Source of the DNA: Candidatus Nomurabacteria bacterium
Lineage (GTDB): Bacteria; Patescibacteriota; Patescibacteriia; Magasanikbacterales; UBA922
Length of the DNA stretch: 64,000 bases
NCBI GenBank assembly: GCA_020632445.1
Contig: JACKFN010000002.1
Span: 105,360-169,359, forward strand
Reading direction: 5' to 3'
The notes below the pieces were generated by a model. The model searched no databases, was not told where the DNA came from, and saw only the letters and a program-made list of their open reading frames with translations. The translations under genes and the position numbers were made by a program. This document shows positions 1,603 through 48,420 of this stretch, piece after piece. Position 1 is the first letter of the stretch; each line of letters opens with the position of its first letter.

Positions 1603-4041
1603 TCACAAACTTGCATCCACCTCACCCGAATCCTCCTCCTCAGGCTCACTGCCAAGCTTTACTCCATCTACCACCAAAAGTATTTCTTTTCCGGTAATAG
1701 AATCTACCGCTCGAACATTTATCTTTGAAGTCAGGTTGGTCTGGGTTGGATTGTCGACGTTATTTTGGAAGGCAAATTGTAGTGCCAAGACATCGACCCC
1801 AAGCGGGAAAGTTTCCATATTCCACAAAACCTTTTGTGTTTCCGGGTCAAACTGAACTTCACCTGCTGGCACCGAAAGCTCATCGTCAAGCCATGTAATA
1901 TCACCATAGATATCCGCCTCCACCTGAACATTGCTCAGTTCATGAAAATGATTGGAAAGTACCCAACTCATGGTATGGACAAGCTGCTCTTCTTCAATTT
2001 CGTGCAGTACCTCAATACCCAAATCGGAGTTTACGGTCAGCATCAAAGGTTTTTGGGTAAGAATTTCTGTTTCACCATCAACCTCATACTGTACCTCCAG
2101 ATTTGCGATGATCTCATAGGTACTAAACTCGGAAAGCTCTATTTGATCAATATTGCGCACAGGAATACTAACGTCTAAAATCACTTCATCGCCTGGTTCG
2201 ATAGTCAAAAATTCTGGCACCGTTGACTTATCCCACTTCAAAATCGCCCTTCTGGTATTTTCATTTACCTGTTCACCAGAAATCTCTCCATCTCGATCAT
2301 CAATCAGATCTGCCCAACTGAGCATGGACTTTTCGTCAAACGATGGGGTATCAAAGCGAAGATATACTTCAACATTGTCTACCTGAGTTTTTCCTTCATT
2401 TTGTAAAAATATACTGCTTGCAAGCATTTCCCCTGGTTGCACATCAAGCTGTTTGGTAGCACCATTGATCACCAGTCGACTCACCATGTCGGTTTCAAGG
2501 ACAGTTATGGGAAGAATCTTGCTGGCATACACATACTCTCCATTATGCTCAGATTGCCCCGATGTTCCCAGCAGTTCAAATACTAATTCTGTCTCTCCAG
2601 ACTCCTCTGGATTTACAAATACACCCGATATTTTTGCCATTTTATCTTCTCCAAGAGATGAAAGCGAAAACTTTCCTTTGTTAAATGGAACTTCCTCAAG
2701 ATTGGCACTCTGCAACAAAAATGCATCATTTTGTACCACTCGCAAATACAGTTGCTCAAGCGAGACATTCTCTGGAAGATCAGAAAAGCTTACTTGCGCT
2801 TCTACGATATCACCGGCGACCACCTCTGTTGGCATAGCAACTTCCAAGTTATACTCTGGATTGGCAACCTCGATATTAAGGCTATCCACTTTTTGAAATT
2901 CAGAACTAAAATTAACAGGAATATAATTGATAAACGCTCGGATTGATTGACTCTTGCCTACATCACCGTACATTCTTCCAAAAATATCAATAAACCCACC
3001 TTCATATCCCTGCAAAAATCCAATATCAAACCGCTCATGATTTTCTGACTCCTGATGAACTGAAGCATCTCTATAGACAAAACCTTCTGGATACTTTACT
3101 TGTAACACAACATTATCAAGACCAACACTTGAGGTGTTACGATATCGTATGCGATATCGTACATCCCCACCAAAAGGTGCGATCTCACTTCCTTCAATTT
3201 CTAAAATAACGCTCTCTGGAGCAAAAGATGCATGGGGTGTAAGGTAAAACAAACCTGCATACACGACACCAGCGACAAAAATACCCGAAAATATAAGCGT
3301 AAAGAGTGCTCGGAAAAATCTTCCACCACGACGCTTTTTAAAATGCTTCATGTCTGGAATACTTCCGTCTTTATTCTTGTAAATTTTTGACAACTTCTCT
3401 TCTATCTTCTCGTGCTTGAGAGAAATAGATTCAACTTTTTCTTCTGATTTCTGTTTCATTTTGTGAGACTTCTTTATTTTCCTTTTTGTGGGCCTGTCTA
3501 CTTCTTTTTCTTTTTCATCACCAACCTCATGGACACTGTCAAAGCCATGTTCACCATCAGCTCTGTATGGTTCTGGCATGGCTTTATGATCTAGGCTACC
3601 CCCATCACTTTTTGCATCATACCAAAGTGCACGAACATCAGCACTCACCTCATCGTCTGGATCTACCGGCTGATGCTGAGCATTTTCTTTCTTTATTGCC
3701 TTGGCTTGTGTAGCGAGTTCCTTTGTGGATGCCTCATGTGACTGATGCATTTTTGCCACCAAATCTTCCAATTCGACTGATTCTCCAAGAGCATCTGAGA
3801 GTTCCTTCTTTTTATCTTTTAAAACCTTACTGGCTCCCGCAAGCTCAATGTCTTTTTTCAAAACCTCTATATCTTCATGTATCTTTTGTTCAAGCTGTTT
3901 TTTCTTATCCAAAGCCTGGTCCTTTTTCTTTGCTAAGGGCTTTGTTGAAGACTTTTTTGCTTTGGCTGACTTGGAAGCACTTGTCCTTTTCTTTGGAGCT
4001 GTTTTAGATGCTTTTGATGTGGAAGATTTTTTGACAGGCAT
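1603..4041 (-). CDS. Large type-II membrane protein: a lysine-rich, histone-like cytoplasmic N-terminal region (~230 aa), a single TM, and a ~570 aa extracytoplasmic domain (hypothetical surface protein)
   Basis: 812 aa. The N-terminus reads MPVKKSSTSKASKTAPKKRTSASKSAKAKKSS.... The TM is FRALFTLIFSGIFVAGVVYAGLFYL. It is the last gene of the glycosylation operon and is followed by the terminator at 1561-1588. Confidence 0.6.
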   Translation of the reverse strand: MPVKKSSTSKASKTAPKKRTSASKSAKAKKSSTKPLAKKKDQALDKKKQLEQKIHEDIEVLKKDIELAGASKVLKDKKKELSDALGESVELEDLVAKMHQSHEASTKELATQAKAIKKENAQHQPVDPDDEVSADVRALWYDAKSDGGSLDHKAMPEPYRADGEHGFDSVHEVGDEKEKEVDRPTKRKIKKSHKMKQKSEEKVESISLKHEKIEEKLSKIYKNKDGSIPDMKHFKKRRGGRFFRALFTLIFSGIFVAGVVYAGLFYLTPHASFAPESVILEIEGSEIAPFGGDVRYRIRYRNTSSVGLDNVVLQVKYPEGFVYRDASVHQESENHERFDIGFLQGYEGGFIDIFGRMYGDVGKSQSIRAFINYIPVNFSSEFQKVDSLNIEVANPEYNLEVAMPTEVVAGDIVEAQVSFSDLPENVSLEQLYLRVVQNDAFLLQSANLEEVPFNKGKFSLSSLGEDKMAKISGVFVNPEESGETELVFELLGTSGQSEHNGEYVYASKILPITVLETDMVSRLVINGATKQLDVQPGEMLASSIFLQNEGKTQVDNVEVYLRFDTPSFDEKSMLSWADLIDDRDGEISGEQVNENTRRAILKWDKSTVPEFLTIEPGDEVILDVSIPVRNIDQIELSEFSTYEIIANLEVQYEVDGETEILTQKPLMLTVNSDLGIEVLHEIEEEQLVHTMSWVLSNHFHELSNVQVEADIYGDITWLDDELSVPAGEVQFDPETQKVLWNMETFPLGVDVLALQFAFQNNVDNPTQTNLTSKINVRAVDSITGKEILLVVDGVKLGSEPEEEDSGEVDASL

Positions 4042-8812: not shown

Positions 8813-9220
8813 CTATGACTTATTCACATATTTGCGTCTAAAGGCCTCTTTATCCCCAAATTCAGGGTAATCTTTATGATGCTCTGGCGGTTGAAAACCC
8901 TTTTTTTTCTCATGCTTGATACCACACCAATAGTGTTCAGTCATGGCAGCAACCATGCTGGCATAGTGAAAAAGACCATTAACGTAACCACAATACATGC
9001 AGTTAAGCTTTTCTACCGGATTGAGGTACTTGAGCCGGTGCCGATCAATTTTGATATAATCTCTGGTTTTCAGATACGGAATCCCATAGAGCGGAAAACA
9101 GACCGTATGATAGATTTCTAAAAAAATATGCAAAATGACTGATGGAACAATCATCATGTAGATAAAAGGGATTGAGACAATGTTGAGAGGAGTTCTCTCA
9201 GGATATTTTTTGTATTCCAT
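8813..9220 (-). CDS. Small hypothetical membrane protein within the glycosylation locus
   Basis: 135 aa. It has two hydrophobic helices (IVSIPFIYMMIVPSVILHIFLEIYHTVCFPLYGI) and a Cys/His-rich C-terminal part (CMYCGY...HYWCG). No family was recognised. Confidence 0.45.
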   Translation of the reverse strand: MEYKKYPERTPLNIVSIPFIYMMIVPSVILHIFLEIYHTVCFPLYGIPYLKTRDYIKIDRHRLKYLNPVEKLNCMYCGYVNGLFHYASMVAAMTEHYWCGIKHEKKKGFQPPEHHKDYPEFGDKEAFRRKYVNKS

Positions 9221-9232
9221 GTTATTTTATAG

Positions 9233-10366
9233 TCATGTGGTCGCCCTTGAGTCTAAAGAAAGAAGATGCAAAAATTCTTGAACAAATACACCCCAAGAAT
9301 ATTCAACCTTATTTTCTTCATTATACCTTTTTTGCTGGTCTATTTGAAATGCAATCGCCTTTTCTATTTCGGTTACACTATATGGATCGACGAGTGATGC
9401 AAATTCATCGGCCACTTCTACCAAAGAACTGTTACTGCTGGTTACTACTGAAGTTCCTACGGACTGCGCCTCAAGTACGGGAAAACCAAATCCCTCATAA
9501 AAACTCGGATACACGAAAATTTCTGCCATCTGGTAGAGTGCAGGTTTGTCGCACGCATCAACGTAGCCAATAGGCATCACGTTTTGGGTGCTTTTCATTT
9601 TTTTGACAACACTTTTGTATTTCCATCCAAGAGTCCCGGCAATTACCAAAGTGTACTTTTCTTTTTGTGTACGATTCCATCTTTCAAACCCGTCAATCAC
9701 ACCTTCTATATTTTTTCGTGGTTCGATAGTGCCCAGAAAAAGTAAATACTTTTCTGGCAAGCTGTATTTTTTTCTCACCTCAAAAAATTTTTCCTCAGAT
9801 AACCCCCGTTTATATTCCAAAAATTCTTTGCCTACTCCCGGACGCAATGTATGTACGCGATCCTTTTTTATACCATACTGGTGAGTAACATCGCGTGACG
9901 TATTATGAGATGGCGTAATAACAAATGTTGCCTTTTTGCAGGCACGTCTTGGATGAAGAATCCAATGCCAAATACGACGTTTAATATTGTACCAGCTCGG
10001 ACACAGCTCATAAGACATATCATGCACGACCTGAACCCGCTTGCATCTACTCGAAACAGAGCTAAATCCGATATTGAGGGAGACAAAGTAATCAAGCTCC
10101 TGCTCAAAAAATCTATCTAACTTTATAATTCCAAACAATGTCAAAAAATTTAAAACCTTGCTTGGTAGCCCTACATACCGATAGGTGACATTACGCTGTT
10201 TCCAGAGTTCTATCTTTGATCTATCAACTTTCCGCCTCCCATAAAACAAAAAATACTGATTTTTATGATCAGTATGCAAAATGGCATCAAGAAATTCATA
10301 GGTAAATTCACCCACTCCAGTCCGCGGGCTGTCCAGCAGTGGACGAATGTCAATGCCAATGTTCAT
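9233..10366 (-). CDS. Glycosyltransferase family 4
   Basis: 377 aa. Carries the motif EGFGFPVLEAQSVGTSVVTS. Has a GT-B fold pattern. Confidence 0.85.
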   Translation of the reverse strand: MNIGIDIRPLLDSPRTGVGEFTYEFLDAILHTDHKNQYFLFYGRRKVDRSKIELWKQRNVTYRYVGLPSKVLNFLTLFGIIKLDRFFEQELDYFVSLNIGFSSVSSRCKRVQVVHDMSYELCPSWYNIKRRIWHWILHPRRACKKATFVITPSHNTSRDVTHQYGIKKDRVHTLRPGVGKEFLEYKRGLSEEKFFEVRKKYSLPEKYLLFLGTIEPRKNIEGVIDGFERWNRTQKEKYTLVIAGTLGWKYKSVVKKMKSTQNVMPIGYVDACDKPALYQMAEIFVYPSFYEGFGFPVLEAQSVGTSVVTSSNSSLVEVADEFASLVDPYSVTEIEKAIAFQIDQQKRYNEENKVEYSWGVFVQEFLHLLSLDSRATT

Positions 10367-10375
10367 AATTTTTTC

Positions 10376-11479
10376 TTAACGCATTTTTGATGCCTCAAAC
10401 TTTCCCTGAATAAGTCCAAATACCTCCTTTTCAAACCGTCTGATATCAAACTGCTTGGCATGGTGCGCAATTTGGTGCCTATCAAAATCTTTGTGAGGAA
10501 AACGACGCAGGAGCAAATCAAAAAGCGTTTCCCATGTTTGTTCTTCAAACAAAAGTCCTGTTTGTCCATCAATAACCGTTTCTGTTGCACCACCCTTCCC
10601 ATACGCAATGACCGGGCAACCACTAGCCATAGCCTCTACAGGAGTGATTCCAAAATCCTCAAGCTGCGGGTGAATAAATGCCTTCGCCTTGGAAAGAAGT
10701 TCAATCTTTTCTTTTTCAGAAACCTTTCCCAAAAATTCTATATTACTCTTGGCGGACTTTTTGATATCATCCCACCAGCCAGGTCCAGTACCAAAAATTT
10801 TCAGCTTCCAACCAAGCCTATTAAATACCTGAATAACCAAATCAAATCGTTTGTATGCTGCGAGTCTTCCTCCGGTAATAAAGTAGTCCCCCACCTCATC
10901 GCTGACATAGTACTGACTCGTATCAACCGGCGGATAGACGACCAAAGCATCACGCTTGTAGTATTTTTGGATCCGATTTTTAACAGTATTGGAGTTAGCC
11001 AAAAAATGATCAACACGGTCTACGCTCATACGATCCCACATGCGTAGTTTATGGATGAGTCTTGGAAGGAGAATTTTTACCAAGGCATTATACTTGAGAT
11101 CACGAATATATTCGTGTGTATCGGTCCACAAAAAACGCGTCGGCGTATGGCAATAACAGATATGAATGGCTCCAGGATCTGTAAGCACACCTTTGGCAAA
11201 AGCGCTCGTAGAAGAAAGCACCACATCAAACCCACGCAAATCGTAGTGTTCTGTCGCCAGAGGCATCAGTGGCAAATACCACTGATAATGTGATCTTGAA
11301 AATGGAAAATTTTTGAGAAATGATTCACGAATTTGCGCATTTTGAAAACTTCCAATCTTATCTGGATCATGAAACAAAACATAGATTGGCGCGTTTGGCC
11401 AAATATTGTGAAACGCTTCTACCACTCTTTCTGCCCCACCATCTTGAGCGAGATAATCATGCACCAGTGCAATTTTCAT
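10376..11479 (-). CDS. Glycosyltransferase family 4 (group 1)
   Basis: 367 aa. The N-terminus is MKIALVHDYLAQDGGAERVV and the C-terminus reads EDFGITPVEAMASGCPVIA. Confidence 0.85.
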   Translation of the reverse strand: MKIALVHDYLAQDGGAERVVEAFHNIWPNAPIYVLFHDPDKIGSFQNAQIRESFLKNFPFSRSHYQWYLPLMPLATEHYDLRGFDVVLSSTSAFAKGVLTDPGAIHICYCHTPTRFLWTDTHEYIRDLKYNALVKILLPRLIHKLRMWDRMSVDRVDHFLANSNTVKNRIQKYYKRDALVVYPPVDTSQYYVSDEVGDYFITGGRLAAYKRFDLVIQVFNRLGWKLKIFGTGPGWWDDIKKSAKSNIEFLGKVSEKEKIELLSKAKAFIHPQLEDFGITPVEAMASGCPVIAYGKGGATETVIDGQTGLLFEEQTWETLFDLLLRRFPHKDFDRHQIAHHAKQFDIRRFEKEVFGLIQGKFEASKMR

Positions 11480-12995: not shown

Positions 12996-13425
12996 GTATC
13001 TATCAAGATGATCGCTTGCCGACTTGTCGGCAAGAGGAAAGTCCGAACTCTCGCTGATTTTTTCAGCAGCACAAGAGTGGGTAACGCCCACCCAGTCCGC
13101 CTCAGGTGTACTGAGGGAAAGTGCCACAGAGACAATACTATCCCGACATCGTCGGGAAAAAGGTGAAAAGTTTGAAGGTGTTTTGATACCAGTAGGATAT
13201 CCCTCGTATCAAAGCTACTTCATTCGCTGTATGGTGACATACATGCGTGGTAAACCCTCTTGGAGAGAAAGAGCAGAGCGTCTTTGGACGTAAAAAGTTA
13301 GCTCGTTAGAGACTGCTGGCAACAGCAGCCGTAGAGAAATGATCATCATCCTGACTTCATGTACAACCGACTTCGGTGGACACATGACATACGGAATACA
13401 AAATTCGGCTTATAAAATAGATACC
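12996..13425 (+). ncRNA. rnpB: RNase P RNA, bacterial type A
   Basis: Conserved blocks are present: GAGGAAAGTCCG (P4 5' strand), GGTAACGCC, GTGCCACAGAGACAA (cf. GUGCAACAGAGAGCAAA), GGTGAAA, GGTAAACCC, TAGAGAAATGA, and the 3' ACAAAATTCGGCTTATA (cf. ACAGAACCCGGCUUAU). The P1 pairing GTATCTAT/ATAGATAC defines the ends. Confidence 0.85.
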
Positions 13426-13452
13426 AAAAATCCGGCTTTAGCCGGATTTTTT
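13426..13452. terminator. Bidirectional rho-independent terminator shared by rnpB (+) and the convergent tRNA-Leu (-)
   Basis: AAAAATCCGGC-ttta-GCCGGATTTTTT, with A/T runs on both sides. Confidence 0.6.
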
Positions 13453-13454
13453 CG

Positions 13455-13540
13455 TGCGCGAGAGAGGACTTGAACCTCCACGTGAAAAACATCACACTAG
13501 GCCCTCAACCTAGCCTGTCTACCAGTTCCAGCACTCGCGC
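13455..13540 (-). tRNA. tRNA-Leu (anticodon GAG), class II with a long variable arm
   Basis: Manual fold of the reverse strand gives acceptor GCGCGAG/CTCGCGC, D-arm CTG-GAACTGGTAGA-CAG, anticodon stem CTAGG/CCTAG with loop TTGAGGG, variable arm TGTGATGTTTTTCACG, T-arm GGAGG-TTCAAGT-CCTCT, and discriminator A. The upstream promoter is TTGACT-17-TACTAT on the minus strand. Confidence 0.85.
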
Positions 13541-13619
13541 TTATATTTTTGCTAACCCCACAATAGTACAAAAAAACACCCGAAAAGTCAAGTGTTTACC
13601 ACATATCTTCCAAAGAAAG

Positions 13620-14381
13620 CTAAAACCTTCTGTCTTTCCCCACAACCATAGCTATCCGACTTTTTGCCAGACGAATAGTGAGTTTCGTTTCCTTAGACTG
13701 CTTTCCATCGGCTTCAACAAGAAACGGTTTTTTTCCACGAACCACCATTTCTTCAAAAGGAAAAACACTTGGCTCCTCATAAATATCCTTAAAAACCCCC
13801 CTACGAGCAAGAGGTCGTATAAATGCCTCCAACTTTCCATCTTGAGGGTGAACGGCTTGTTTTGTCCCATTTTTATTCTTGAAATAAAATGGCTGCAAAT
13901 TACAAACTACGAGCTCCATTTTCTTGTTTACGGCAAATACAGAAAAACTGTCATCATATTCGATGGAGACATCATGTGGAAATACGTGAAGTTGGGATAC
14001 AAAATATCTATTGTTGACCCATCCAACATCCAACCGCACAACCCTCCGCCGTGACAACACATCACACGATTCTACCCCCTCAGGAATGCCCAAAACCTGC
14101 GCAATGGTATTTCCATTGCCCATGGGGAGAAAACCAAAAGTAACATCACATGTCGCCCCGCGGGAAAGTACATGGCCAAACGTGGCGTCGTTCCCAACAA
14201 TAACAACCGTGGTGGCACCACGGCGCATTTCCTCATCTATAATATGCTTGGTATTGCTAAAACTTTGCAGACGAATAATTTTTCCTGCAATTTCATAGTC
14301 AGTCAGGCGTGTCTCAATAGCCTTGAGAGCTGAGTCATACTTTTTCTGACGCAAAAAATTGTCATACAAGTAGACATACAT
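13620..14381 (-). CDS. Diacylglycerol-kinase catalytic-domain lipid kinase (YegS/BmrU-like)
   Basis: 253 aa. VVIVGNDATFGHVLS...TFGFLPMGNGNTIAQ corresponds to the GGDGT...PLGIIPLGTGNDFAR motifs of the DAGK_cat family. Confidence 0.65.
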   Translation of the reverse strand: MYVYLYDNFLRQKKYDSALKAIETRLTDYEIAGKIIRLQSFSNTKHIIDEEMRRGATTVVIVGNDATFGHVLSRGATCDVTFGFLPMGNGNTIAQVLGIPEGVESCDVLSRRRVVRLDVGWVNNRYFVSQLHVFPHDVSIEYDDSFSVFAVNKKMELVVCNLQPFYFKNKNGTKQAVHPQDGKLEAFIRPLARRGVFKDIYEEPSVFPFEEMVVRGKKPFLVEADGKQSKETKLTIRLAKSRIAMVVGKDRRF

Positions 14382-14984: not shown

Positions 14985-16718
14985 CTATTCTTTCGTATCA
15001 GATGATAACTCCTCCGGCCGATCACTATATTGATTTATAATATCTTGTCCAAACTTCGCCTGTTCATCTTTGAACTCTACGGTCTGTTCATCCGGACCTT
15101 CTAACGGCACCTCGAAACCAAACTCACTTCCTTTGCCGAGTCCAGGACTCTTTGCCCATACTTGCCCACCATGTGCTTCAATAAACTTACGACATACATA
15201 GATACCAAGTCCAGTCCCATTTACATTCGTACCCTCAACGTTCTTACCACGATAAAATTTTTGAAAAAAATTCCCTTTGTCTTCTTTGTTAAATCCAAAA
15301 CCTTCATCTTTGACGCGGACAACTACCTTTCCTGACTTTTTTTCAAGTATGATCTTGATGACCCCCTTATCACTATATTTGATAGCATTATCAATGAAGT
15401 TAAAAACCACATGTCGAATTTTTTCAGAATCCATCATAACCTTGACCGAAGCGGTCTTTGAGGGTTTCCAATCAATTTTGAGCCCCTTTTGACTAGCCCT
15501 GTCTATGAGTTCTTTGTAACAACTTGTAATAACCTCATTCATACTTCCTTTTGCAAACGAAAATTTTGTTCTTCCTTGCTCGATTCGAGTGATATCCAAA
15601 AATTCATCTACAAGTTTTACCAGACGTTCGTTACTCTCATCCATTTCGTCCAAAATTCCCTTGGTTTTTTTTGTGACTTTTCCAAAAGCCCCATCAGAAA
15701 TGAGTTCTATATATCCCTTGATGATCGAAAGCGGCGTTCGCAGCTGATGTGAGGCAATAGAAAGAAATTCAGTTTTGGTCCTATCAAGTTCTTGAAGCTT
15801 TTCATTTGCAACCTCTAACGATTTGGCCATGTGCTCAATTTGCTCCTTCTGATTTACTTCACGAACAACTGAGCGCACGATCACATACCCAAGTCCAGCA
15901 GCAAGAACAAATGCTGAACCTTTCAAAATGAGCTGTGTGAGTGTATCGACAAACAATACGTCAATCCCAAATAAGATAACCATTGCCACAACGGCAAGCT
16001 CAGTAAGTAAAGCCTTCATACTCATGAGCTGATACTTGGCAATTGAATACGAAACGGTTAATACCAAAATGAAGGTAAATACGGGACCAAGATGAATGAA
16101 GTGATAATTATGAAAGAAAGGGGATGGAAGAATGATGTTGAAATATCCACCGCATAAGACAATCCCAATCATGGTCGCAAAAATAATCTTTGCTTGTTTG
16201 CGAAGCACTTCGTTAGTGTCTTTGAGACTAAGTGCAAACAAAATTAACCCCCCCAAATAATACGCAGAGAAAAACGCAGTGAACAACCACCATCCAATAG
16301 GCTTAAGGTCAACTGAACGAGTACCATCAGGAAGAATAAATGCATCTCCCACTATAAAATCTGGGATAAAAAGCAGATAAGAAACAATGATAAAAAGGAC
16401 AAAACTTCCGATGTTGTAATTCAAAACGTTCGATCGTTTGTGTGGGAATACATGTACAAAGAACCACACATTCATGGCAATAAATAGCCCAGAAACATAT
16501 ATGGCTCGCATGTAGACGCTTGCCACCTCAAGTGGTGCATTTCTAAATGTAAGCAAAAGAAAAATCCATGCAGAAAGTGACAGGGCAAATGTGGTAAAAA
16601 CAATGTTGATTGAGTTTTTTGGGTCATTCGAGAGTATGAAAAACGCAAGCATGGCATTAAAGAATCCCAAAAAAATCAATAAGTAGTCGGGAAACGAAAG
16701 AAAAAATAACATAGACAT
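14985..16718 (-). CDS. Sensor histidine kinase with a multi-TM N-terminal sensor
   Basis: 577 aa, with about 8 N-terminal TM helices. The H-box is EFLSIASHQLRTPLS. The HATPase_c N/G boxes include GTGLGIYVCRKFIEAHGG. No response regulator is adjacent. Confidence 0.85.
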   Translation of the reverse strand: MSMLFFLSFPDYLLIFLGFFNAMLAFFILSNDPKNSINIVFTTFALSLSAWIFLLLTFRNAPLEVASVYMRAIYVSGLFIAMNVWFFVHVFPHKRSNVLNYNIGSFVLFIIVSYLLFIPDFIVGDAFILPDGTRSVDLKPIGWWLFTAFFSAYYLGGLILFALSLKDTNEVLRKQAKIIFATMIGIVLCGGYFNIILPSPFFHNYHFIHLGPVFTFILVLTVSYSIAKYQLMSMKALLTELAVVAMVILFGIDVLFVDTLTQLILKGSAFVLAAGLGYVIVRSVVREVNQKEQIEHMAKSLEVANEKLQELDRTKTEFLSIASHQLRTPLSIIKGYIELISDGAFGKVTKKTKGILDEMDESNERLVKLVDEFLDITRIEQGRTKFSFAKGSMNEVITSCYKELIDRASQKGLKIDWKPSKTASVKVMMDSEKIRHVVFNFIDNAIKYSDKGVIKIILEKKSGKVVVRVKDEGFGFNKEDKGNFFQKFYRGKNVEGTNVNGTGLGIYVCRKFIEAHGGQVWAKSPGLGKGSEFGFEVPLEGPDEQTVEFKDEQAKFGQDIINQYSDRPEELSSDTKE

Positions 16719-16857
16719 GCAATAAAAAAATCGGCTCGTACTCTACTACAAATATTTCTCATAGTATAGCACAAACCGACAAAAAGAGGGATGCACGGCC
16801 GCGTGTCAGTGGGAAAATTCACGCGGCATGCTATTGGGTGGGATATATTGTGTGAGA

Positions 16858-18177
16858 TCAAGCGTCGCGCGGAAGGTAGATCATACCGGAGTTGGCCAGC
16901 TGTGCGCCATATCCGGCGCCAATCACCAGCTGCCCGATCAGGTCACCAGGCTGGACAAGTCTCATCTCAATGGCACGACTGATCACGATGCCCGTTGACG
17001 GGCACACGGTGTTGCCGATGTCAGGCGTGCGAAGTGTACGATCGAGCATATCCAGCATATCGGCCAGCTCCCGCACCAACTTGAAGTTGGCCTGGTGAAT
17101 CGCGATCAGCATGAACTCCGTGATAGACTCCACACCCCACATCCGCGTGAGCATCTCGGCGTTGTCCATCATCGCACGGAAGAAGACCTCGGCCACGACG
17201 CCGGCGTTCATGGTGTACCGCGCATCCTGCCAGTTGCCGGCGTAGAGCGGGAAATCCGAACCACCTGCCATGAAGTCGACCAGCTCGATCGGCAGCGACG
17301 ACTCGCAGGACGTAAGACGCCCCTGACCACACCGCTCGAAGATAAGCGCCGAACCACCATCCGCGAAGAACCACGGCGTAGCCGCAGCCCACGGATGAGG
17401 ATGTTCGTTGGCCGTTCGCGTGATGTCGGGGTGCATGGCGGAGCCCGATGTGGAGTTGGTCCCCACGACGACACCCAGCTGAAGTCCTTCATGGGCCTTC
17501 ATGAACGTAGCCATCTCGTTAATGGCCGCACCCAATCCAGCACACCCGAAGTTCATGTGACGAACGATCCATCGACTCCGGCTGAGCCCGAGGATGTTCA
17601 TAGCCGCGCCGATGAGCCCACCGAGGTTGGTCCTCCCAGTGGTGCTCACGAAAACCATCACACCATTGCTCGTCCGCGCTTCATCGAGCGAGATGCCGGC
17701 CTGGTGAAAGGCACGAACCACGGCGAGCACAGCGTAGTGAAGGTCCGTCATGTGGTCCACGAGCGGCACGAGCGCCTGACGATGGGTCGGGAACGTCGCG
17801 CGCTCCCTCATGCCATGTCTGCGCTGGAGCTCCAGGATGCGGTCACGGAACTCCACGAGCTCGGGGTTCGGTTCGTCGGGATCACCCATGATCGGGAACC
17901 CCGTCACCAGACACCTCCCCTTCTCGTCGGTGTAGCCCGCCTCGTGGGAATCGAGAAACCGCACATGGCCCTGTCTGTCGATCTTGACCGCCGCGCTCGA
18001 ACCTTCGGCCTCGGTCATGCCGTAGAAGTCTTGGGCGGACATGAGGCCACCGCTGGGCTTGTTCCAAGGGAACCCACGAGCAATGTCCTCGTAGGTCACC
18101 TGCTGTCGACCGACATCAGAGGCGGCACGCAGCACCACCCCCATAACTTCCACTGCGTTGATGGTGTTGCTGGACAT
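16858..18177 (-). CDS. FabH-like (KAS III-type) thiolase-fold condensing enzyme with a ~150 aa N-terminal extension, encoded on a high-GC island
   Basis: The catalytic triad context is conserved: NFGCAGLGAAI (Cys; cf. AAACAGF), IAIHQANFKLV (His; cf. VPHQANLRI) and DIGNTVCPSTG (Asn; cf. HGNTSAAS). The C-terminus LVIGAGYG matches the FabH end. GC3 is strongly elevated relative to the rest of the window. The start was chosen at ATG 18175-18177, which is preceded by the RBS GGCGGAGGGT, rather than the TTG at 18207. Confidence 0.7.
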   Translation of the reverse strand: MSSNTINAVEVMGVVLRAASDVGRQQVTYEDIARGFPWNKPSGGLMSAQDFYGMTEAEGSSAAVKIDRQGHVRFLDSHEAGYTDEKGRCLVTGFPIMGDPDEPNPELVEFRDRILELQRRHGMRERATFPTHRQALVPLVDHMTDLHYAVLAVVRAFHQAGISLDEARTSNGVMVFVSTTGRTNLGGLIGAAMNILGLSRSRWIVRHMNFGCAGLGAAINEMATFMKAHEGLQLGVVVGTNSTSGSAMHPDITRTANEHPHPWAAATPWFFADGGSALIFERCGQGRLTSCESSLPIELVDFMAGGSDFPLYAGNWQDARYTMNAGVVAEVFFRAMMDNAEMLTRMWGVESITEFMLIAIHQANFKLVRELADMLDMLDRTLRTPDIGNTVCPSTGIVISRAIEMRLVQPGDLIGQLVIGAGYGAQLANSGMIYLPRDA

Positions 18178-18396
18178 CTGACCCTCCGCCTTGATCTCGT
18201 GTTTCAAAACTCAGAATCTACAGCACCACCTGGCACTGGGATCCCGATGTATACGATGCATCCTAGCTTTCGTACACATTACTCTTGAGTTACTACTCAC
18301 CAAAGAATAATGTAAACAAAAACAGTCCTCGCCGGACATTCTATTCTATAGAGTAAAAAAAATCGCCGACAGGCCCCCTTTTTCAATTGAAACTCA

Positions 18397-18783
18397 CTAA
18401 TCCAAATCCATAATATTGTCCCGAAATCTCCCGCAGTTTATATCAAGAGCTCTGTAAATGTCAAATAAGCGTTCACTAGATAGTTCCCCCTTTTTAGCAA
18501 TGATTCCTCTTCTATCAAGAGTTTCTATCTTATACAGCTTACACAAAGCGTCAACGCCTAACCCATTTTCCGCGGCCACGAGAAGTACCTCGTTAGCAAA
18601 GACATGGTCACCTTTTTCACGCGGCTCAAGAATAGCGCATACAATAGTAGACAATCCTTCATTGAGGACATTATCCTGCAAAACCACCACAGCTTTTTCT
18701 CCCTTTTTTGACTCGTAGAGAAAAATATCACCACGCTCTATGACACCACAATACATGTTATCAATATCAAATGCTGCTTCCAT
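18397..18783 (-). CDS. MazF/PemK-family endoribonuclease toxin
   Basis: 128 aa. RGDIFLYE...KAVVVLQDN...LSTIVCAI...RRGIIAKKGELSSERLFDIYRALDI follows the PemK/MazF fold pattern (GDIWLV...RPVLIVS...VVVPxT...). It overlaps the upstream RHH gene. Confidence 0.65.
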   Translation of the reverse strand: MEAAFDIDNMYCGVIERGDIFLYESKKGEKAVVVLQDNVLNEGLSTIVCAILEPREKGDHVFANEVLLVAAENGLGVDALCKLYKIETLDRRGIIAKKGELSSERLFDIYRALDINCGRFRDNIMDLD

Positions 18784-18785
18784 AC

Positions 18786-18983
18786 CTATTGCCTTTCTTT
18801 GCTCACCGCCCGCAGTTCATCCTCCATGCTTTGGATTTCCTGTTTATGTTTGTAGTCCAAAATCGCCCTAGCCACAAAATCACTTCGCTTTCCATGCGGA
18901 AATGCTTTACGAAAATAACTTGCCAAGCTTTTTGGCAATTTTATAGTCAAACGTTCAATGGATTCCTCCGCTTTACTTCGCAT
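18786..18983 (-). CDS. Ribbon-helix-helix (CopG/MazE-like) antitoxin
   Basis: ERLTIKLPKSLASYFRKAFP...SDFVARAILDY is a typical RHH beta-strand plus two helices. Its stop lies next to the toxin start. The start was chosen at MRSKAEE. Confidence 0.55.
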   Translation of the reverse strand: MRSKAEESIERLTIKLPKSLASYFRKAFPHGKRSDFVARAILDYKHKQEIQSMEDELRAVSKERQ

Positions 18984-19068
18984 ACTTCTTTCAGTATACA
19001 GAAAAAAAACAAAATCCAAACTTCTTTCTGTGGATAAGTTGCACTCTACAATACACCTTTTATTTGCG

Positions 19069-25991: not shown

Positions 25992-26020
25992 TTGACGTAT
26001 ATGAATTTTTTTGGTATAGT
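25992..26020 (+). promoter_or_regulatory. AT-rich sigma70-like promoter TTGACG-17-TATAGT, immediately upstream of high-GC island 2
   Basis: TTGACG is at 25992-25997 and TATAGT at 26015-26020. The RBS GGAGGA (26041-26046) and GTG (26052) follow. Confidence 0.5.
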
Positions 26021-26051
26021 CATTTATCCGTAACCACCACGGAGGACATCC

Positions 26052-26219
26052 GTGTCCCGTACCAGAAGGACCATCGGTCGAGCCCTGTTTTGGGGCTTGG
26101 CCGCCAACACCGCATGGGTGTTCCTCATGTCGGTAGGGTCCTACGAGCTCCTCGATGGGATCTTCGACATCGACGAGCTGTTCAACTACCGATTCAAGCC
26201 GAAGGAGGAAGACAAGTGA
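26052..26219 (+). CDS. Small membrane protein (55 aa), first ORF of the GC-island micro-operon
   Basis: GTG start with the RBS GGAGGA. The product is VSRTRRTIGRALFWGLAANTAWVFLMSVGSYELLDGIFDIDELFNYRFKPKEEDK. GC3 is high. Its stop overlaps the next start (GTGA). Confidence 0.4.
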   Translation: MSRTRRTIGRALFWGLAANTAWVFLMSVGSYELLDGIFDIDELFNYRFKPKEEDK

Positions 26220-26386
26220 ACGGGATAGCCGAGGACCTGCTCGAGTCGTCTGTGGGCTTATGCCCCTTCTTCATCGTCGACGGCATCAACTGGCTCGAAC
26301 GCCGCGCTCGCGCGCGGACTCGTCGTCGCGAAAACCGTGAAATCCGTCGCTGTAAGCAGATGCAGCATATCTGGGGGCTCTGGTGA
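26216..26386 (+). CDS. Small protein (56 aa) with a hydrophobic N-terminal half and an Arg-rich tail
   Basis: GTG start preceded by AAGGAGGA. The product is VNGIAEDLLESSVGLCPFFIVDGINWLERRARARTRRRENREIRRCKQMQHIWGLW. It is coupled to both ORF1 and ORF3. Confidence 0.4.
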   Translation: MNGIAEDLLESSVGLCPFFIVDGINWLERRARARTRRRENREIRRCKQMQHIWGLW

Positions 26387-26607
26387 TGCTGTTCTACCGC
26401 GCTGGCATCGTCGTCGGTCTCATGCTCAACACCGAGGCCGCAGCGGCCAAGGTGCTGAACCGGCGATCCATTGACGTCGCAGTCGCCTGCCACATCGTCA
26501 GCATCGCCGTCATGGGAGCATTCCTCCCTGAGACCTTCAAGAAGGGCATGCATGACGCCGAGTCAGCGGTGGAAGCTCTAACCAACCCATTCGACTTCGA
26601 CATCTGA
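26383..26607 (+). CDS. Small hydrophobic protein (74 aa), third coupled ORF
   Basis: ATGA stop/start overlap with ORF2. The product is MMLFYRAGIVVGLMLNTEAAAAKVL...VAVACHIVSIAVMGAFLPETFKKG. Confidence 0.4.
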   Translation: MMLFYRAGIVVGLMLNTEAAAAKVLNRRSIDVAVACHIVSIAVMGAFLPETFKKGMHDAESAVEALTNPFDFDI

Positions 26608-26691
26608 TCGTCCCACAAACCACCCCACGCGGACCCCACCCCGCCATCTTCAGAAGAGCAAATACTTGTTTGTTGTTCTGAGTAGAAAAAT

Positions 26692-27855
26692 ATGGCACTA
26701 AAGATTAATGAACAAATCATGAAACGATTTGATCAGGCAAATAACATCCTGATTGTTTTTCGTCGCCATTTTTCTGGAGACTCAATTGCATCAGCGCTTG
26801 GGCTCTATAACTACCTCGAATCAAAAAACAAACGAGTCGACATGGTGTCGGAAAATTTTGTCCTTCCTACACAATACGAATTTTTGCCAAAAGCACATCT
26901 GATCAAAAAAGAATTTTCCTTTCTGCAAAAATTTGTCATTACCGTAGACATCAAGGATATTGGAATTGAAGAACTCAACTATGATGTGGAGCATGAAAAG
27001 CTACGCATTTTTGTTACTCCAAAACAGGGACTCATTACCGGAAACCACATCCGTACCGCGCAGACTCGATTTCGCTATGATCTCATTGTCGTGGTGGACA
27101 GCCCTGACCTCGAATCACTTGGAGATCTCTTTGAAAAACACACAGATTTGTTTTACCAAATTCCCGTTATCAATATTGATAACCACAGCGAAAACGAACA
27201 CTTTGGTCACATCAACCATGTTGATATTACCGCAACCTCTACCGCTGAAATGGTCTACAACCTCATCAAAACCGATCAAAAGCTCGTTATGGATGCTGAC
27301 AAGGCGACTACCCTGCTTACAGGAATCATTGCCAAAACACAGAGCTTCAAGACCAATGAGACCAAACCACACACACTTAATATTGCCAGTGAACTCATCA
27401 ACCACGGAGCAGATCGAGACCTTATTATTCGCAACCTCTACCGCACTCGTAGCGTTAATGCGCTCAAACTCTGGGGACAGGCGCTCACACACCTCAAGCA
27501 CGACCGATCAAACAATCTTGTCTGGACGAGTATTACCCGAGAAGATTTCGTTCGCACTGGTGCCAATGAATATGACCTGCATGATATTGTCGATGAACTT
27601 ATCTCGAACTCTCCAGAAGCAGAAGTGATTGCCCTCTTTTATGAACCACACCACAAGGATTCAGAAGGAACACCCGTGCATGTTCTCCTTACCGTCGAAA
27701 AACCATACGACGCTGCCAAGCTCGTCGGTGAATATGGCCCCCTCCTTGGAGGAAAAAGACGCGTGTCCTTTATCGTAGAAGGAAAATCACTTGCAGATGT
27801 TGAAAGCAGTATTGTGGAGACGATCAAAAAACGAATGAAAGAAGTGAAAAAGTAA
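26692..27855 (+). CDS. DHH-family phosphoesterase (NrnA-like core) with variant motif III (DNH instead of DHH)
   Basis: 387 aa. Motif I is HFSGDSIASALG, motif II is VVVDSPD and motif III is NIDNHSEN. Its size is NrnA-like. Confidence 0.5.
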   Translation: MALKINEQIMKRFDQANNILIVFRRHFSGDSIASALGLYNYLESKNKRVDMVSENFVLPTQYEFLPKAHLIKKEFSFLQKFVITVDIKDIGIEELNYDVEHEKLRIFVTPKQGLITGNHIRTAQTRFRYDLIVVVDSPDLESLGDLFEKHTDLFYQIPVINIDNHSENEHFGHINHVDITATSTAEMVYNLIKTDQKLVMDADKATTLLTGIIAKTQSFKTNETKPHTLNIASELINHGADRDLIIRNLYRTRSVNALKLWGQALTHLKHDRSNNLVWTSITREDFVRTGANEYDLHDIVDELISNSPEAEVIALFYEPHHKDSEGTPVHVLLTVEKPYDAAKLVGEYGPLLGGKRRVSFIVEGKSLADVESSIVETIKKRMKEVKK

Positions 27856-32468: not shown

Positions 32469-33317
32469 ATGTTCTACGTAATCACAGCGGTAGTCGTCGC
32501 CGCCGTATTTGTCGCTATCAGCATCGTTCGTAATCTCCGTCAGGGACGGTCCTTCGAGGAGATGGCCGATGATGGTCAGCAGCCCAAGGACGAAGGCGAC
32601 AAGAGCAAGCAGAACGATCGCTTCGCTCTACCCGATGACAAGGCGGCCACCTCGAGGGCTAACCTGAAGACCGTGCTGGACTACCCCCCGGACAAGGTGC
32701 CCATGGTGACCATCGTGTACGTGGACGACGATGGACACCAGAAGCGCCGGCGCTGGCCGGTGATTCAAGGTCTCCGGATGGTAAGGACCTTTTTGCGCCA
32801 AGGAGTTCGAACTCAACGTTTCGCCATCCGTGATGTCTCGGAGTTCGACCCCACGAACACCTCACAGCAGGGTGACGCTGACGCGCTGTTCTGGCGCATC
32901 AACGATGGTACGAGCGAGCCCGACCTCGACCCCCCGATCCCCTGCGAGCTGCTGATGATCCTGATGGGGGTGGATCAGAAAGAAGCAGATCGGCTCTTCG
33001 ATGCCATGCAAAAAGGTAACGCGCGAGACACGATCGCTGACCCACGAGGCGCCGCAGAGGTCGCACGCACCCATGCGCTCGCTGAGCAGGGGATTCGCGT
33101 TAATCTGCGTCGCACCATCGCACTTGGTGATCCAGCGATCGCCTCCCTTCAGAACTTCATGGCGATCAACCAAGCTCCTGAGCGAGCTCTGGCAGAGGTA
33201 GTGCAGGCACGTCGAACAAATCTGGGGATGCCATCCCCTCAGTTGTCCGACCCTGAACCTGCCGACAGTCAACGACCGACGCTCTTCGCCAACCCTACCG
33301 ATCCCACCAAAAGCTAG
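32469..33317 (+). CDS. Hypothetical membrane-anchored protein encoded on high-GC island 3
   Basis: 282 aa. The RBS GGGGAGG lies 7 nt before the ATG. The N-terminal TM is FYVITAVVVAAVFVAISIV, followed by an acidic/Pro-rich soluble domain. GC3 is high. A terminator follows. Confidence 0.5.
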   Translation: MFYVITAVVVAAVFVAISIVRNLRQGRSFEEMADDGQQPKDEGDKSKQNDRFALPDDKAATSRANLKTVLDYPPDKVPMVTIVYVDDDGHQKRRRWPVIQGLRMVRTFLRQGVRTQRFAIRDVSEFDPTNTSQQGDADALFWRINDGTSEPDLDPPIPCELLMILMGVDQKEADRLFDAMQKGNARDTIADPRGAAEVARTHALAEQGIRVNLRRTIALGDPAIASLQNFMAINQAPERALAEVVQARRTNLGMPSPQLSDPEPADSQRPTLFANPTDPTKS

Positions 33318-48294: not shown

Positions 48295-48347
48295 AATCTC
48301 TTATAAAAGGCAAGAAAATGGCTGAGATTAGCCATTTTCTAAAGTAG

Positions 48348-48420
48348 TGCGCCTGGGTGGGTTTGAACCACCGACCCCAACGTTATAAGCGTTGTGCTCT
48401 AACCCCTGAGCTACAGGCAC
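48348..48420 (-). tRNA. tRNA with predicted anticodon UAU (tRNA-Ile, AUA-decoding)
   Basis: Manual cloverleaf gives acceptor GTGCCTG/CAGGCGC (T2-G71 wobble), D-arm GCTC-AGGGGTTA-GAGC, anticodon stem CAACG/CGTTG with loop CTTATAA (U33, anticodon TAT, A37), variable loop GGGTC, T-arm GGTGG-TTCAAAC-CCACC, and discriminator A. A terminator hairpin lies at 48315-48338. Confidence 0.8.

Follow-up and report, generated by a model that had tools for sequence, protein, structure and literature searches.

A polymorphic enzyme-plus-sensor locus in Magasanikbacteria-like Patescibacteria, centred on a divergent KAS III-type gene

Within a 64,000-nt stretch of a Candidatus Nomurabacteria genome (hereafter the window; contig JACKFN010000002.1 of assembly GCA_020632445.1, positions 105,360-169,359, forward strand), a single gene unusually rich in guanine plus cytosine (GC) encodes a protein of the β-ketoacyl-acyl carrier protein synthase III (KAS III, or FabH) superfamily, directly upstream of a multi-transmembrane (multi-TM) histidine kinase gene. 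The gene represents a new and highly divergent version of the KAS III/FabH-type enzyme, and the more interesting result is what surrounds it: a polymorphic enzyme-plus-sensor module conserved across a lineage of the Candidate Phyla Radiation (CPR). The arginyl-tRNA synthetase (ArgRS) encoded in the window (best identity 58%) places the organism with Magasanikbacteria-like Patescibacteria (CPR). An earlier note on this DNA had drawn attention to the GC-rich block and read it as an island that encodes a possibly specialised condensing enzyme, flanked by a repeat resembling a target-site duplication; its observation is confirmed in part, and its interpretation is partly supported.

A metagenome scan with the kinase alignment and ArgRS loci recovered ~30 related contigs that keep the order ArgRS - (antitoxin - PemK) - [cargo] - multi-TM histidine kinase - bactofilin, where the cargo slot holds one gene of ~0.9-1.4 kb drawn from at least four unrelated families. 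KAS III-like genes occupied the slot in 5 loci (the window, L043, L045, L046 and L049), acyl-acyl carrier protein (ACP)-reductase-like genes in 7 (TIGR04058, 32 bits; best PDB match 6JZU) plus one relative matching CER1-like_C (E = 2.4e-17), soluble O-methyltransferase-like genes in 6 and TM-anchored methyltransferases in 9-10, with non-KAS cargo standing beside the same kinase in ~25 loci. The slot was filled in all relatives examined, with no empty site among them. Its conserved left border in the window is a pemIK-type toxin-antitoxin pair (18397-19019, minus strand), comprising a PemK/MazF-like toxin (18397-18783; Pfam PemK_toxin, E = 6.6e-10) and an open reading frame (ORF) in the antitoxin position (18786-19019; 65 aa in the public call) that had no Pfam match. 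In L045, the order reads valyl-tRNA synthetase (ValRS) - HATPase - tyrosyl-tRNA synthetase (TyrRS) - ArgRS - antitoxin - PemK - X - kinase - bactofilin - diacylglycerol kinase (DAGK), and positions 9128-10489 encode an intact 437-aa KAS orthologue within a block of 64% GC; its flanking proteins share 77-79% identity with their counterparts in the window, versus 35-37% for the KAS protein. The gene call for L045 gives the last 162 aa of this protein and a 223-aa antisense gene, despite the intact 437-aa ORF; automatic gene callers tend to mis-annotate GC-rich genes of low-GC CPR genomes. The remaining KAS-type loci (L043, protein P0004; L046, P0005; L049, P0007) have the same gene immediately upstream of the orthologous kinase. 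Across the KAS clade, the gene lay directly upstream of a multi-TM kinase in 7 of the 11 loci examined (the five KAS-type CPR loci together with L125 and L127), and L004, L123, L124 and L126 had no adjoining multi-TM kinase. Outside the five KAS-type CPR loci, the clade members P0010 and P0011 are encoded directly upstream of a multi-TM kinase N-terminus; the one adjoining P0011 is most like KAS-type sensors, and the short fragment adjoining P0010 matches O-methyltransferase-type sensors as well or better. The L127 contig (GCA_040960765.1; 1-318 and 3302-3655) carries a GC-rich KAS relative (GC at third codon positions, GC3, 0.86; flanks ~0.50) followed by a KAS-type kinase sensor, and a fragment ~1.7 kb upstream of the KAS relative matches window kinase residues 129-226 and may be a second sensor gene nearby.

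The kinase gene (minus strand) divides into a membrane sensor (15810-16718, residues ~1-303), with approximately nine hydrophobic segments by hydropathy, and a HisKA plus HATPase_c core (14985-15809) assigned with Pfam, both parts being followed through identity matrices. Among 28 kinases (sensor region taken as window residues 1-285; 5,000 permutations of cargo labels), mean sensor identity was 0.53 within cargo families and 0.24 between them, which none of the 5,000 permutations reached, versus 0.69 within and 0.67 between families for the HisKA/HATPase core, which 138 of the 5,000 reached. At the level of sequence, the sensor strictly co-varied with the cargo family and the core followed genome relatedness. 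Within families, cargo identity tracked sensor identity (Spearman 0.57) and not core identity (0.14), the pairs being non-independent. Sensors beside the other cargo types match Pfam HisKA_7TM, and the KAS-type sensor matched no Pfam sensor family.

Comparisons between individual loci localised the exchange. L073 (methyltransferase cargo) and L074 (reductase-like cargo) have kinase cores of 0.98 identity and sensors of 0.24; their DNA is 90% identical through pemK as far as 77 nt ahead of the cargo start, and once more from approximately kinase residue 297, with no alignment between those two stretches. L054 and L060, which belong to one cargo family, are 0.97 identical in the core, 0.49 in the sensor and 0.31 in the cargo, and the window and L051 are 0.77 identical in the core and 0.16 in the sensor. 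Differing alleles coexisted within one sample, Ga0172379 (L069, L073 and L074). As recorded in these alignments, the L073/L074 and L054/L060 swaps confirm exchange of cargo and sensor as a unit. For non-KAS relatives, alignment with the window ends at the pemK stop (18398-18419) and picks up at 15797-15809 (approximately kinase residue 303), and because the alignments break there, the variable module of the window can be placed at ~15810-18397, encompassing the leader, the KAS gene, the hairpins and the sensor. Fast turnover of the slot between near-identical flanks, and the position of the variable gene next to a toxin-antitoxin pair in many loci, might also be expected of a conflict or defence hotspot anchored by pemIK and stocked with variable effector genes. 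We regard this as very unlikely: PADLOC had no match for the KAS protein, PemK or the antitoxin, the cargo-kinase pair occurs without pemIK in L016, L017, L035, L046, L049 and L076, and the swapped unit reaches into the kinase sensor, not into pemIK.

The joint exchange of enzyme and sensor suggests a signal-maker/receptor pair. We consider the chances roughly even that the locus is a swappable module whose enzyme produces or alters a hydrophobic ligand that the neighbouring kinase reads. In such a module, exchange would proceed by homologous recombination in the conserved flanks, with pemK and the leader on one side and the dimerization and histidine phosphotransfer (DHp)/catalytic core on the other, and enzyme and sensor would work together on the same molecule, a small, hydrophobic, acyl-derived compound that the enzyme would make or modify. 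For the KAS type, the reaction could be a Claisen-type condensation on Cys212, using scavenged acyl thioesters and yielding a β-keto-acyl, ketone or pyrone-type product, which the adjacent kinase may bind within the membrane; the whole would resemble a phcB-phcS or cqsA-cqsS-like synthase-receptor pair, with alleles diversifying as in pherotype loci.

Several points weigh against this proposal. The within-family correlations are drawn from non-independent pairs. The window and L045 share 77% identity in the sensor and 35-37% in the enzyme, so that the enzyme is diverging much faster than expected of a strict ligand-receptor lock; in the same pair, a sensor more diverged than the core, as a pherotype-style locus would predict, was not seen (0.77 versus 0.81), the contrast in divergence between sensor and core appearing only across cargo types and in other pairs. 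The N-terminal coenzyme A (CoA)-contact region of the window protein is degenerate. Searches of the 64-kb window with phmmer returned no ACP, and no response regulator with CheY and OmpR queries, both weak negatives obtained with three approximate ACP/receiver queries in all. A lack of fatty-acid synthesis is reported for CPR bacteria (cited in PMC12455944), which puts the supply of acyl and malonyl thioesters in doubt. Finally, a physical enzyme-sensor complex or an envelope-modifying role would give equal co-variation.

Coupling of enzyme and sensor without a signal-receptor role, either as lipid or envelope remodelling monitored by the sensor or as an accessory subunit that gates the kinase, is accordingly a real if minority alternative, which we think improbable without discounting it. 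The co-variation data fit it equally well, a bactofilin and a DAGK-type lipid kinase are conserved downstream, the sensor is nearly all membrane-embedded, and two cargo types resemble fatty-acyl enzymes (the 32-bit TIGR04058 and the CER1-like_C matches given above). Less easily accommodated are the KAS and O-methyltransferase cargo proteins, which have no membrane segment, and the unrelated chemistries found in one slot, which a range of distinct small ligands would explain more readily than a single envelope function.

The KAS gene itself lies at 16858-18177 (minus strand; GC 0.61, GC3 0.76) and encodes 439 aa. The longest minus-strand ORF, 16858-18207, begins at a TTG and would give 449 aa, and the ATG at 18177, 5 nt downstream of a GGAGG and adopted in the public gene call (P0001), is the likely start. 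Codon-position GC is 0.62/0.46/0.76, versus a GC3 of 0.37-0.40 in the neighbouring genes, and because this pattern fits coding, we take the ORF to be a real gene with high-GC codon usage. A 397-aa antisense ORF (17095-18288, plus strand) was rejected, its codon-position GC not being coding-like; such ORFs are expected in GC-rich DNA. The ~440-aa thiolase-fold protein proposed earlier is thus borne out in length, fold and catalytic residues: the motifs NFGCAGL, HQANFKL and GNTVCP are present and carry Cys212, His361 and Asn389 (439-aa numbering), and careful alignment left this triad intact. In a 34-sequence family alignment, His361 and Asn389 were invariant and Cys212 near-invariant; the window protein retains all near-invariant residues and aligns with the FabH structure 2EBD at the His and Asn motifs.

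Profile matches were FabH-type, every one of them under the curated cut-off: Pfam ACP_syn_III_C (PF08541) at 26.2 bits (cut-off 26.6), a faint match to ACP_syn_III (PF08545) at 12.6 bits (cut-off 24), NCBIfam PRK09352 at 26.9 bits (cut-off 249) and TIGR00747 at 24.4 bits (cut-off 292.1). The hidden Markov model (HMM) searches were, in this sub-threshold sense, in line with the FabH-like assignment made before; affinity to type III polyketide synthases or to named subfamilies was not found. The window protein had no match at E <= 1 to the Chal_sti_synt N or C domains in Pfam and none to the OleA, DarB, StlD or DpgA subfamily models in NCBIfam. Its relatives score 23-36 bits on named subfamily models with cut-offs of 425-550 (450-550 for DarB/StlD), and weak matches to PF00195 are on record for two of them. 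By these profiles, the window protein appears to fall in no named KAS III subfamily. Close relatives are few. Two non-identical proteins passed E = 1e-3 among 5.8 billion clustered proteins, an exhaustive HMMER scan of 1.84 billion representatives returned 51 proteins (the best at ~32-40% identity), the nearest non-CPR relatives reach at most ~30% identity, and a protein pattern scan of GTDB representatives, a method that reaches close relatives only, found nothing. Weak matches of the window protein to DUF7259 (E = 0.052) and the GloVer repeat (E = 0.043) were judged to be chance, as was that of P0021, a 1,662-aa repeat protein matching residues 24-83 through ten repeats.

A single-sequence structural model (predicted local distance difference test, pLDDT, 38) was discarded in favour of an AlphaFold2 model built with the 34-sequence alignment (pLDDT 75.9; predicted template modelling score, pTM, 0.78), in which residues 141-439 are confident. 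The top Foldseek matches of this model were BioZ, FabH, FabH2, OleA and PqsD (E ~1e-17 to 1e-18); against the PDB, BioZ and FabH gave E values of 1.5e-18 to 1e-16 and target-normalised TM scores (TMt) of 0.72-0.85. BioZ, FabH, FabH2, OleA, PqsD and MxnB all matched about equally, at 14-20% identity. Because the profile matches, conserved triad and modelled fold agree, we assign the window protein to the KAS III superfamily, and the encoded enzyme is probably soluble and catalytically competent.

Could it simply be an ordinary FabH that initiates fatty-acid synthesis in this organism? The fold and Cys-His-Asn triad are those of FabH, and FabH models are the best profile matches; even so, this seems to us most improbable. 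The scores fall far below the FabH cut-offs (26.9 versus 249 bits for PRK09352; 24.4 versus 292 for TIGR00747), identity to solved FabHs is 14-20%, and the gene evolves far faster than its neighbours. The gene neighbours are ArgRS/TyrRS/ValRS, pemIK, the histidine kinase, bactofilin and DAGK, with no fab, acpP or plsX association and no fab, acpP or pls gene nearby; the ACP search was also negative in the window, a weak test. A methyltransferase or reductase-like gene replaces the KAS gene in sister lineages. The earlier impressions that this is not a housekeeping FabH and that no fatty-acid or polyketide gene lies close by both held (none within ~10 kb by Pfam context), and a specialised small-molecule role, of the kind played by PqsD or pyrone synthases, would be the best reading of the protein.

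What did not survive is the supposed ~150-aa N-terminal extension, which is really a degenerate canonical N-terminus followed by an internal insertion. Against a family profile made without the insertion-type long proteins, residues 2-74 of P0004 match the usual N-terminal strand and helix (E = 3.7e-8), and because that alignment breaks off and resumes at residue 116, the additional ~40-70 residues are an internal insertion. In the window protein, comparison with P0004 by BLASTP, the alignment, the profile and pLDDT together place this lineage-specific insertion at residues ~67-141 (approximately 17755-17979, minus strand). Among the orthologues, only those of L045 and L043 have it too, and the window and L045 proteins share the pattern HEAGYTDE.G..LVTG... 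within it. The N-terminal CoA-contact segment (GxGS...W..R.GI) was recognisable in P0004 (E = 3.7e-8), weak in L045 (E = 0.0057) and undetected in the window protein. Structure prediction was of low confidence over residues 1-140 (CoA-contact segment below 50) and resolved one helix there, at ~105-121.

The GC-rich block was correctly noted: it spans ~16.80-18.25 kb, at 0.54-0.67 GC in 100-nt windows versus ~0.33-0.45 in its flanks, in a window of ~42% GC that contains three short blocks at 58-62%. Its previously assigned right coordinate, 18260, is the edge of the GC shift; the gene edge lies elsewhere. Because three independent Logan assemblies (SRR12358675, SRR12358676 and SRR14234112) match the window at 100% identity over the island and both flanks, its junctions are no assembly chimera. 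A recent horizontal insertion, in which a FabH-like gene from a high-GC donor arrived on a small mobile island that duplicated the hexamer GATGCA, would account for the composition (GC 0.61 and GC3 0.76 versus ~0.38-0.40 in neighbours, with a high-GC style of amino-acid composition) and for the presence of GATGCA near both edges, and we nevertheless find it scarcely credible. The hexamer does occur at 16790, 18255 and 32439, as had been noted, and its reading as a target-site duplication fails: the window contains 45 copies versus 45.8 expected, and zone pairs at equal spacing have at least one hexamer in common in 84% of cases when shuffled and in 95% when real, so the repeat is attributable to chance. 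The left copy (16790-16795, plus strand) overlaps the last three stem bases at the 3' edge of a hairpin that is conserved in L045, and the right copy (18255-18260, plus strand) lies inside a palindrome of the leader, GATGCATC. No integrase or transposase was found at the locus, and phage and plasmid collections held no match to it. In L045 and L043, the slot contains orthologues with the private insertion, set in flanks that have diverged (to ~72% nucleotide identity in L045, and 51-79% amino-acid identity across L045 and L043), the co-varying sensor domain is host-like (GC3 0.32), and no protein closer than 41% identity exists among the 1.84 billion representatives. Taken from the genomes compared, with a chance hexamer, no recombinase and an occupied slot in relatives, the island is a conserved variable slot and not a fresh insertion.

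The composition itself remains striking across the lineage. Averaged over 23 loci, GC3 was 0.66 for the cargo, 0.32 for the sensor and 0.33 for the core, and the cargo was GC-rich in 21 of the 23, with L016 and L017 alone host-like. The cargo sense strand is poor in A at four-fold sites (0.13 overall; 0.05 in the window gene), and the proteins are Lys-poor and Arg/Ala/Gly-rich. Flanks of lineages with orthologous cargo are only ~72% identical in DNA, so their silent sites are likely near saturation, and for that reason ancient transfer followed by amelioration fails to explain the retained GC; recent import misfits because of the private insertion, the congruent branching and the lack of close donors. 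Repeated import from GC-rich partners, in which host-derived enzymes that let the CPR cell copy or alter host molecules are acquired time after time and stay GC-rich through that renewed import, would suit cargo that is GC-rich at all codon positions with proteins of this composition, the occurrence of KAS-clade relatives in 63-65% GC contigs (L004 and L123), and the documented horizontal gene transfer into Patescibacteria (PMC12455944). We judge it an outside possibility, since CPR-borne KAS proteins cluster together (three with the private insertion), their branching order agrees with flanks and sensor, the nearest non-CPR relatives are at most ~30% identical, and the sharp GC boundary falls between the cargo and the co-inherited sensor. 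The high GC and A-poor codon usage confined to the cargo gene are real and accounted for by neither transfer scenario. One possibility is a gene-specific force, such as selection for transcripts that survive the adjacent PemK/MazF-type RNase, or a localised mutational bias. PemK/MazF motifs (ACA, UAC, UACAU and others) were not depleted in the window gene beyond codon usage; 22 pooled cargo genes showed mild depletion of the AU-rich tetramers TTAT, TAAG, CTAA and ATTA (z approximately -4 to -4.6), with no clear motif among them. The fuller proposal, that this is a previously undescribed polymorphic signalling locus in which unrelated enzymes and the kinase sensor are swapped to give lineage- or strain-specific "dialects" or host-cue detectors, with cargo GC held by a gene-specific force, we advance tentatively, as less probable than the swappable enzyme-sensor module alone.

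Set beside known systems, the locus combines familiar features in an unfamiliar way. With FabH and other KAS III enzymes (including BioZ and FabH2), the window protein shares the thiolase fold, the triad in HQAN and GNT contexts and the Gly-rich C-terminal loop; it differs in its 14-20% identity, its insertion of ~70 residues and its degenerate CoA-contact segment, in lacking fab neighbours, in being replaced by unrelated enzymes in sister lineages, and in that the cargo KAS is always paired with the sensor kinase in CPR loci. PqsD, the pyrone synthases MxnB and PpyS, DarB and OleA are KAS III-like makers of signals or specialised metabolites. They resemble the window enzyme in fold, triad and stand-alone position outside fatty-acid synthesis, and PqsD, OleA and MxnB fit its model as well as FabH does, so head-to-head or acyl-CoA condensation would be plausible by analogy; unlike them, it has no specific sequence affinity to any of the group and no pathway partner genes here. 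CqsA-CqsS and LqsA-LqsS are signalling pairs of a synthase and an adjacent sensor kinase. In Ralstonia, the methyltransferase PhcB makes a signal sensed by the kinase PhcS (PMC8578825, PMC11960443). As in all three pairs, a gene for a small-molecule enzyme here lies beside a polytopic membrane histidine kinase, and two of the alternative cargo families are, like PhcB, methyltransferases; unlike them, the locus shows no sequence relationship to these systems and no adjacent response regulator, and several unrelated enzyme classes alternate at one position. The agrBDC and comQXP loci are polymorphic pherotype loci. They too have a variable gene, signal-producing in their case, and a variable kinase N-terminal sensor between a conserved core and conserved flanks, with alleles that coexist in a sample, but here the variable gene encodes enzymes of differing fold in place of a peptide precursor with its processing enzyme, and it is strikingly deviant in base composition. 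Genomic islands and integron cassettes also come to mind, since the locus places one gene of deviant GC in a fixed slot with a hairpin after it; unlike them, it has no integrase, no target-site duplication and no attC-like site common to the cargo types, and its breakpoints lie in coding and leader homology without a specific site.

CPR bacteria are regarded as minimal episymbionts that scavenge lipids, and little is known of chemical communication among them. Exchange, at one conserved locus, of an enzyme along with the ligand-binding half of a kinase would give a direct genomic handle on what these cells make and sense, and would supply natural enzyme-sensor pairs; a sharply bounded GC-rich, A-poor gene persisting beside a host-like sensor also challenges the equation of a GC island with recent transfer.

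The untranslated parts of the module are structured. The 5' leader, which runs from the PemK stop to the cargo start (18178-18396, minus strand; delimited by L045 alignment, blastn and folding), is conserved with L045 over the first ~93 nt past pemK, with a blastn breakpoint at 18304. Its GC-rich proximal part (18178-18300) folds better than its own shuffles (z = -3.3), and the leader contains the GGAGG (18183-18187) and the palindrome GATGCATC (18255-18262). Right after the cargo stop lies a terminator-like hairpin (16793-16831, minus strand; GCAUGCCGCGUG...CACGCGGCCGUGC, then a U-rich tail) that is kept in L045 (fold z = -5.6 in the window and -6.95 in L045), and many other loci carry an analogous GC-rich hairpin 3' of the cargo gene. 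A second long hairpin (16723-16780, minus strand) embeds an extended -10-like element, TGTGCTATACT, with a U-run just before the kinase start codon. It occurs in four of the five KAS-type loci (the window, L045 at 10547-10607, L046 and L049) and partially in L043, with a TGnTATACT/TATAAT-like box and compensatory changes across four KAS-type loci, and could be an attenuator or a promoter-occluding structure. These hairpins were detected by folding; the built-in terminator scan, which limits loops to 3-8 nt, found none, and Rfam yielded no family in the islands or leaders.

Leaders elsewhere vary in length and association. The pemK-to-cargo spacer is ~460 nt in L045 versus ~220 nt in the window, and L045 has a GC-rich untranslated stretch of ~325 nt before the KAS orthologue (8851-9175) that has no counterpart in the window and matches no Rfam family at gathering thresholds. 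A near-identical leader of ~120 nt, with a TTGACA-type promoter box, two or three hairpins and a GGAGG, is shared by L054 (~3480-3606), L057 (~3400-3521) and L060 (~3030-3151), where it precedes differing cargo (reductase-like in L057; TM-methyltransferase in L054 and L060), with the exchange breakpoint at the cargo start codon.

Beyond this locus, the second GC-rich block of the window (26000-26700; 0.58-0.61 GC) lies between the ValRS gene and a DHH-family gene. No long ORF stands out cleanly in it: the plus strand has one of 159 aa, and the minus strand has others of 119 and 108 aa. The matching slot of L045 also contains a GC-rich block (601-1300; 0.56-0.62), but the match of L045 to the 159-aa ORF is limited to the AT-rich first 42 residues. 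The third block corresponds to a 282-aa ORF (32469-33317, plus strand; GC3 0.68) with a hydrophobic N-terminal segment, situated between phosphoglycerate mutase and enolase genes and matching nothing in Pfam or PADLOC. Short blocks of 0.55-0.72 GC against a background of 0.33-0.45 also occur in nine Magasanikbacteria-like contigs (L005, L008, L011, L013, L015, L018, L020, L031 and L035) and are mostly single ORFs without a family match; those of L018 and L020 are a homologous pair (49% identity), and that of L031 codes for an IS110-type transposase fragment. Carrying single GC-rich genes seems to be characteristic of this lineage in general. RNA genes in the window include a bacterial class A RNase P RNA (12996-13428, plus strand; 174 bits), a tRNA-Leu(GAG) (13454-13540, minus strand), which overlaps a probably spurious 194-aa ORF (13470-14054, plus strand), and a tRNA-Ile(TAT) (48347-48420, minus strand).

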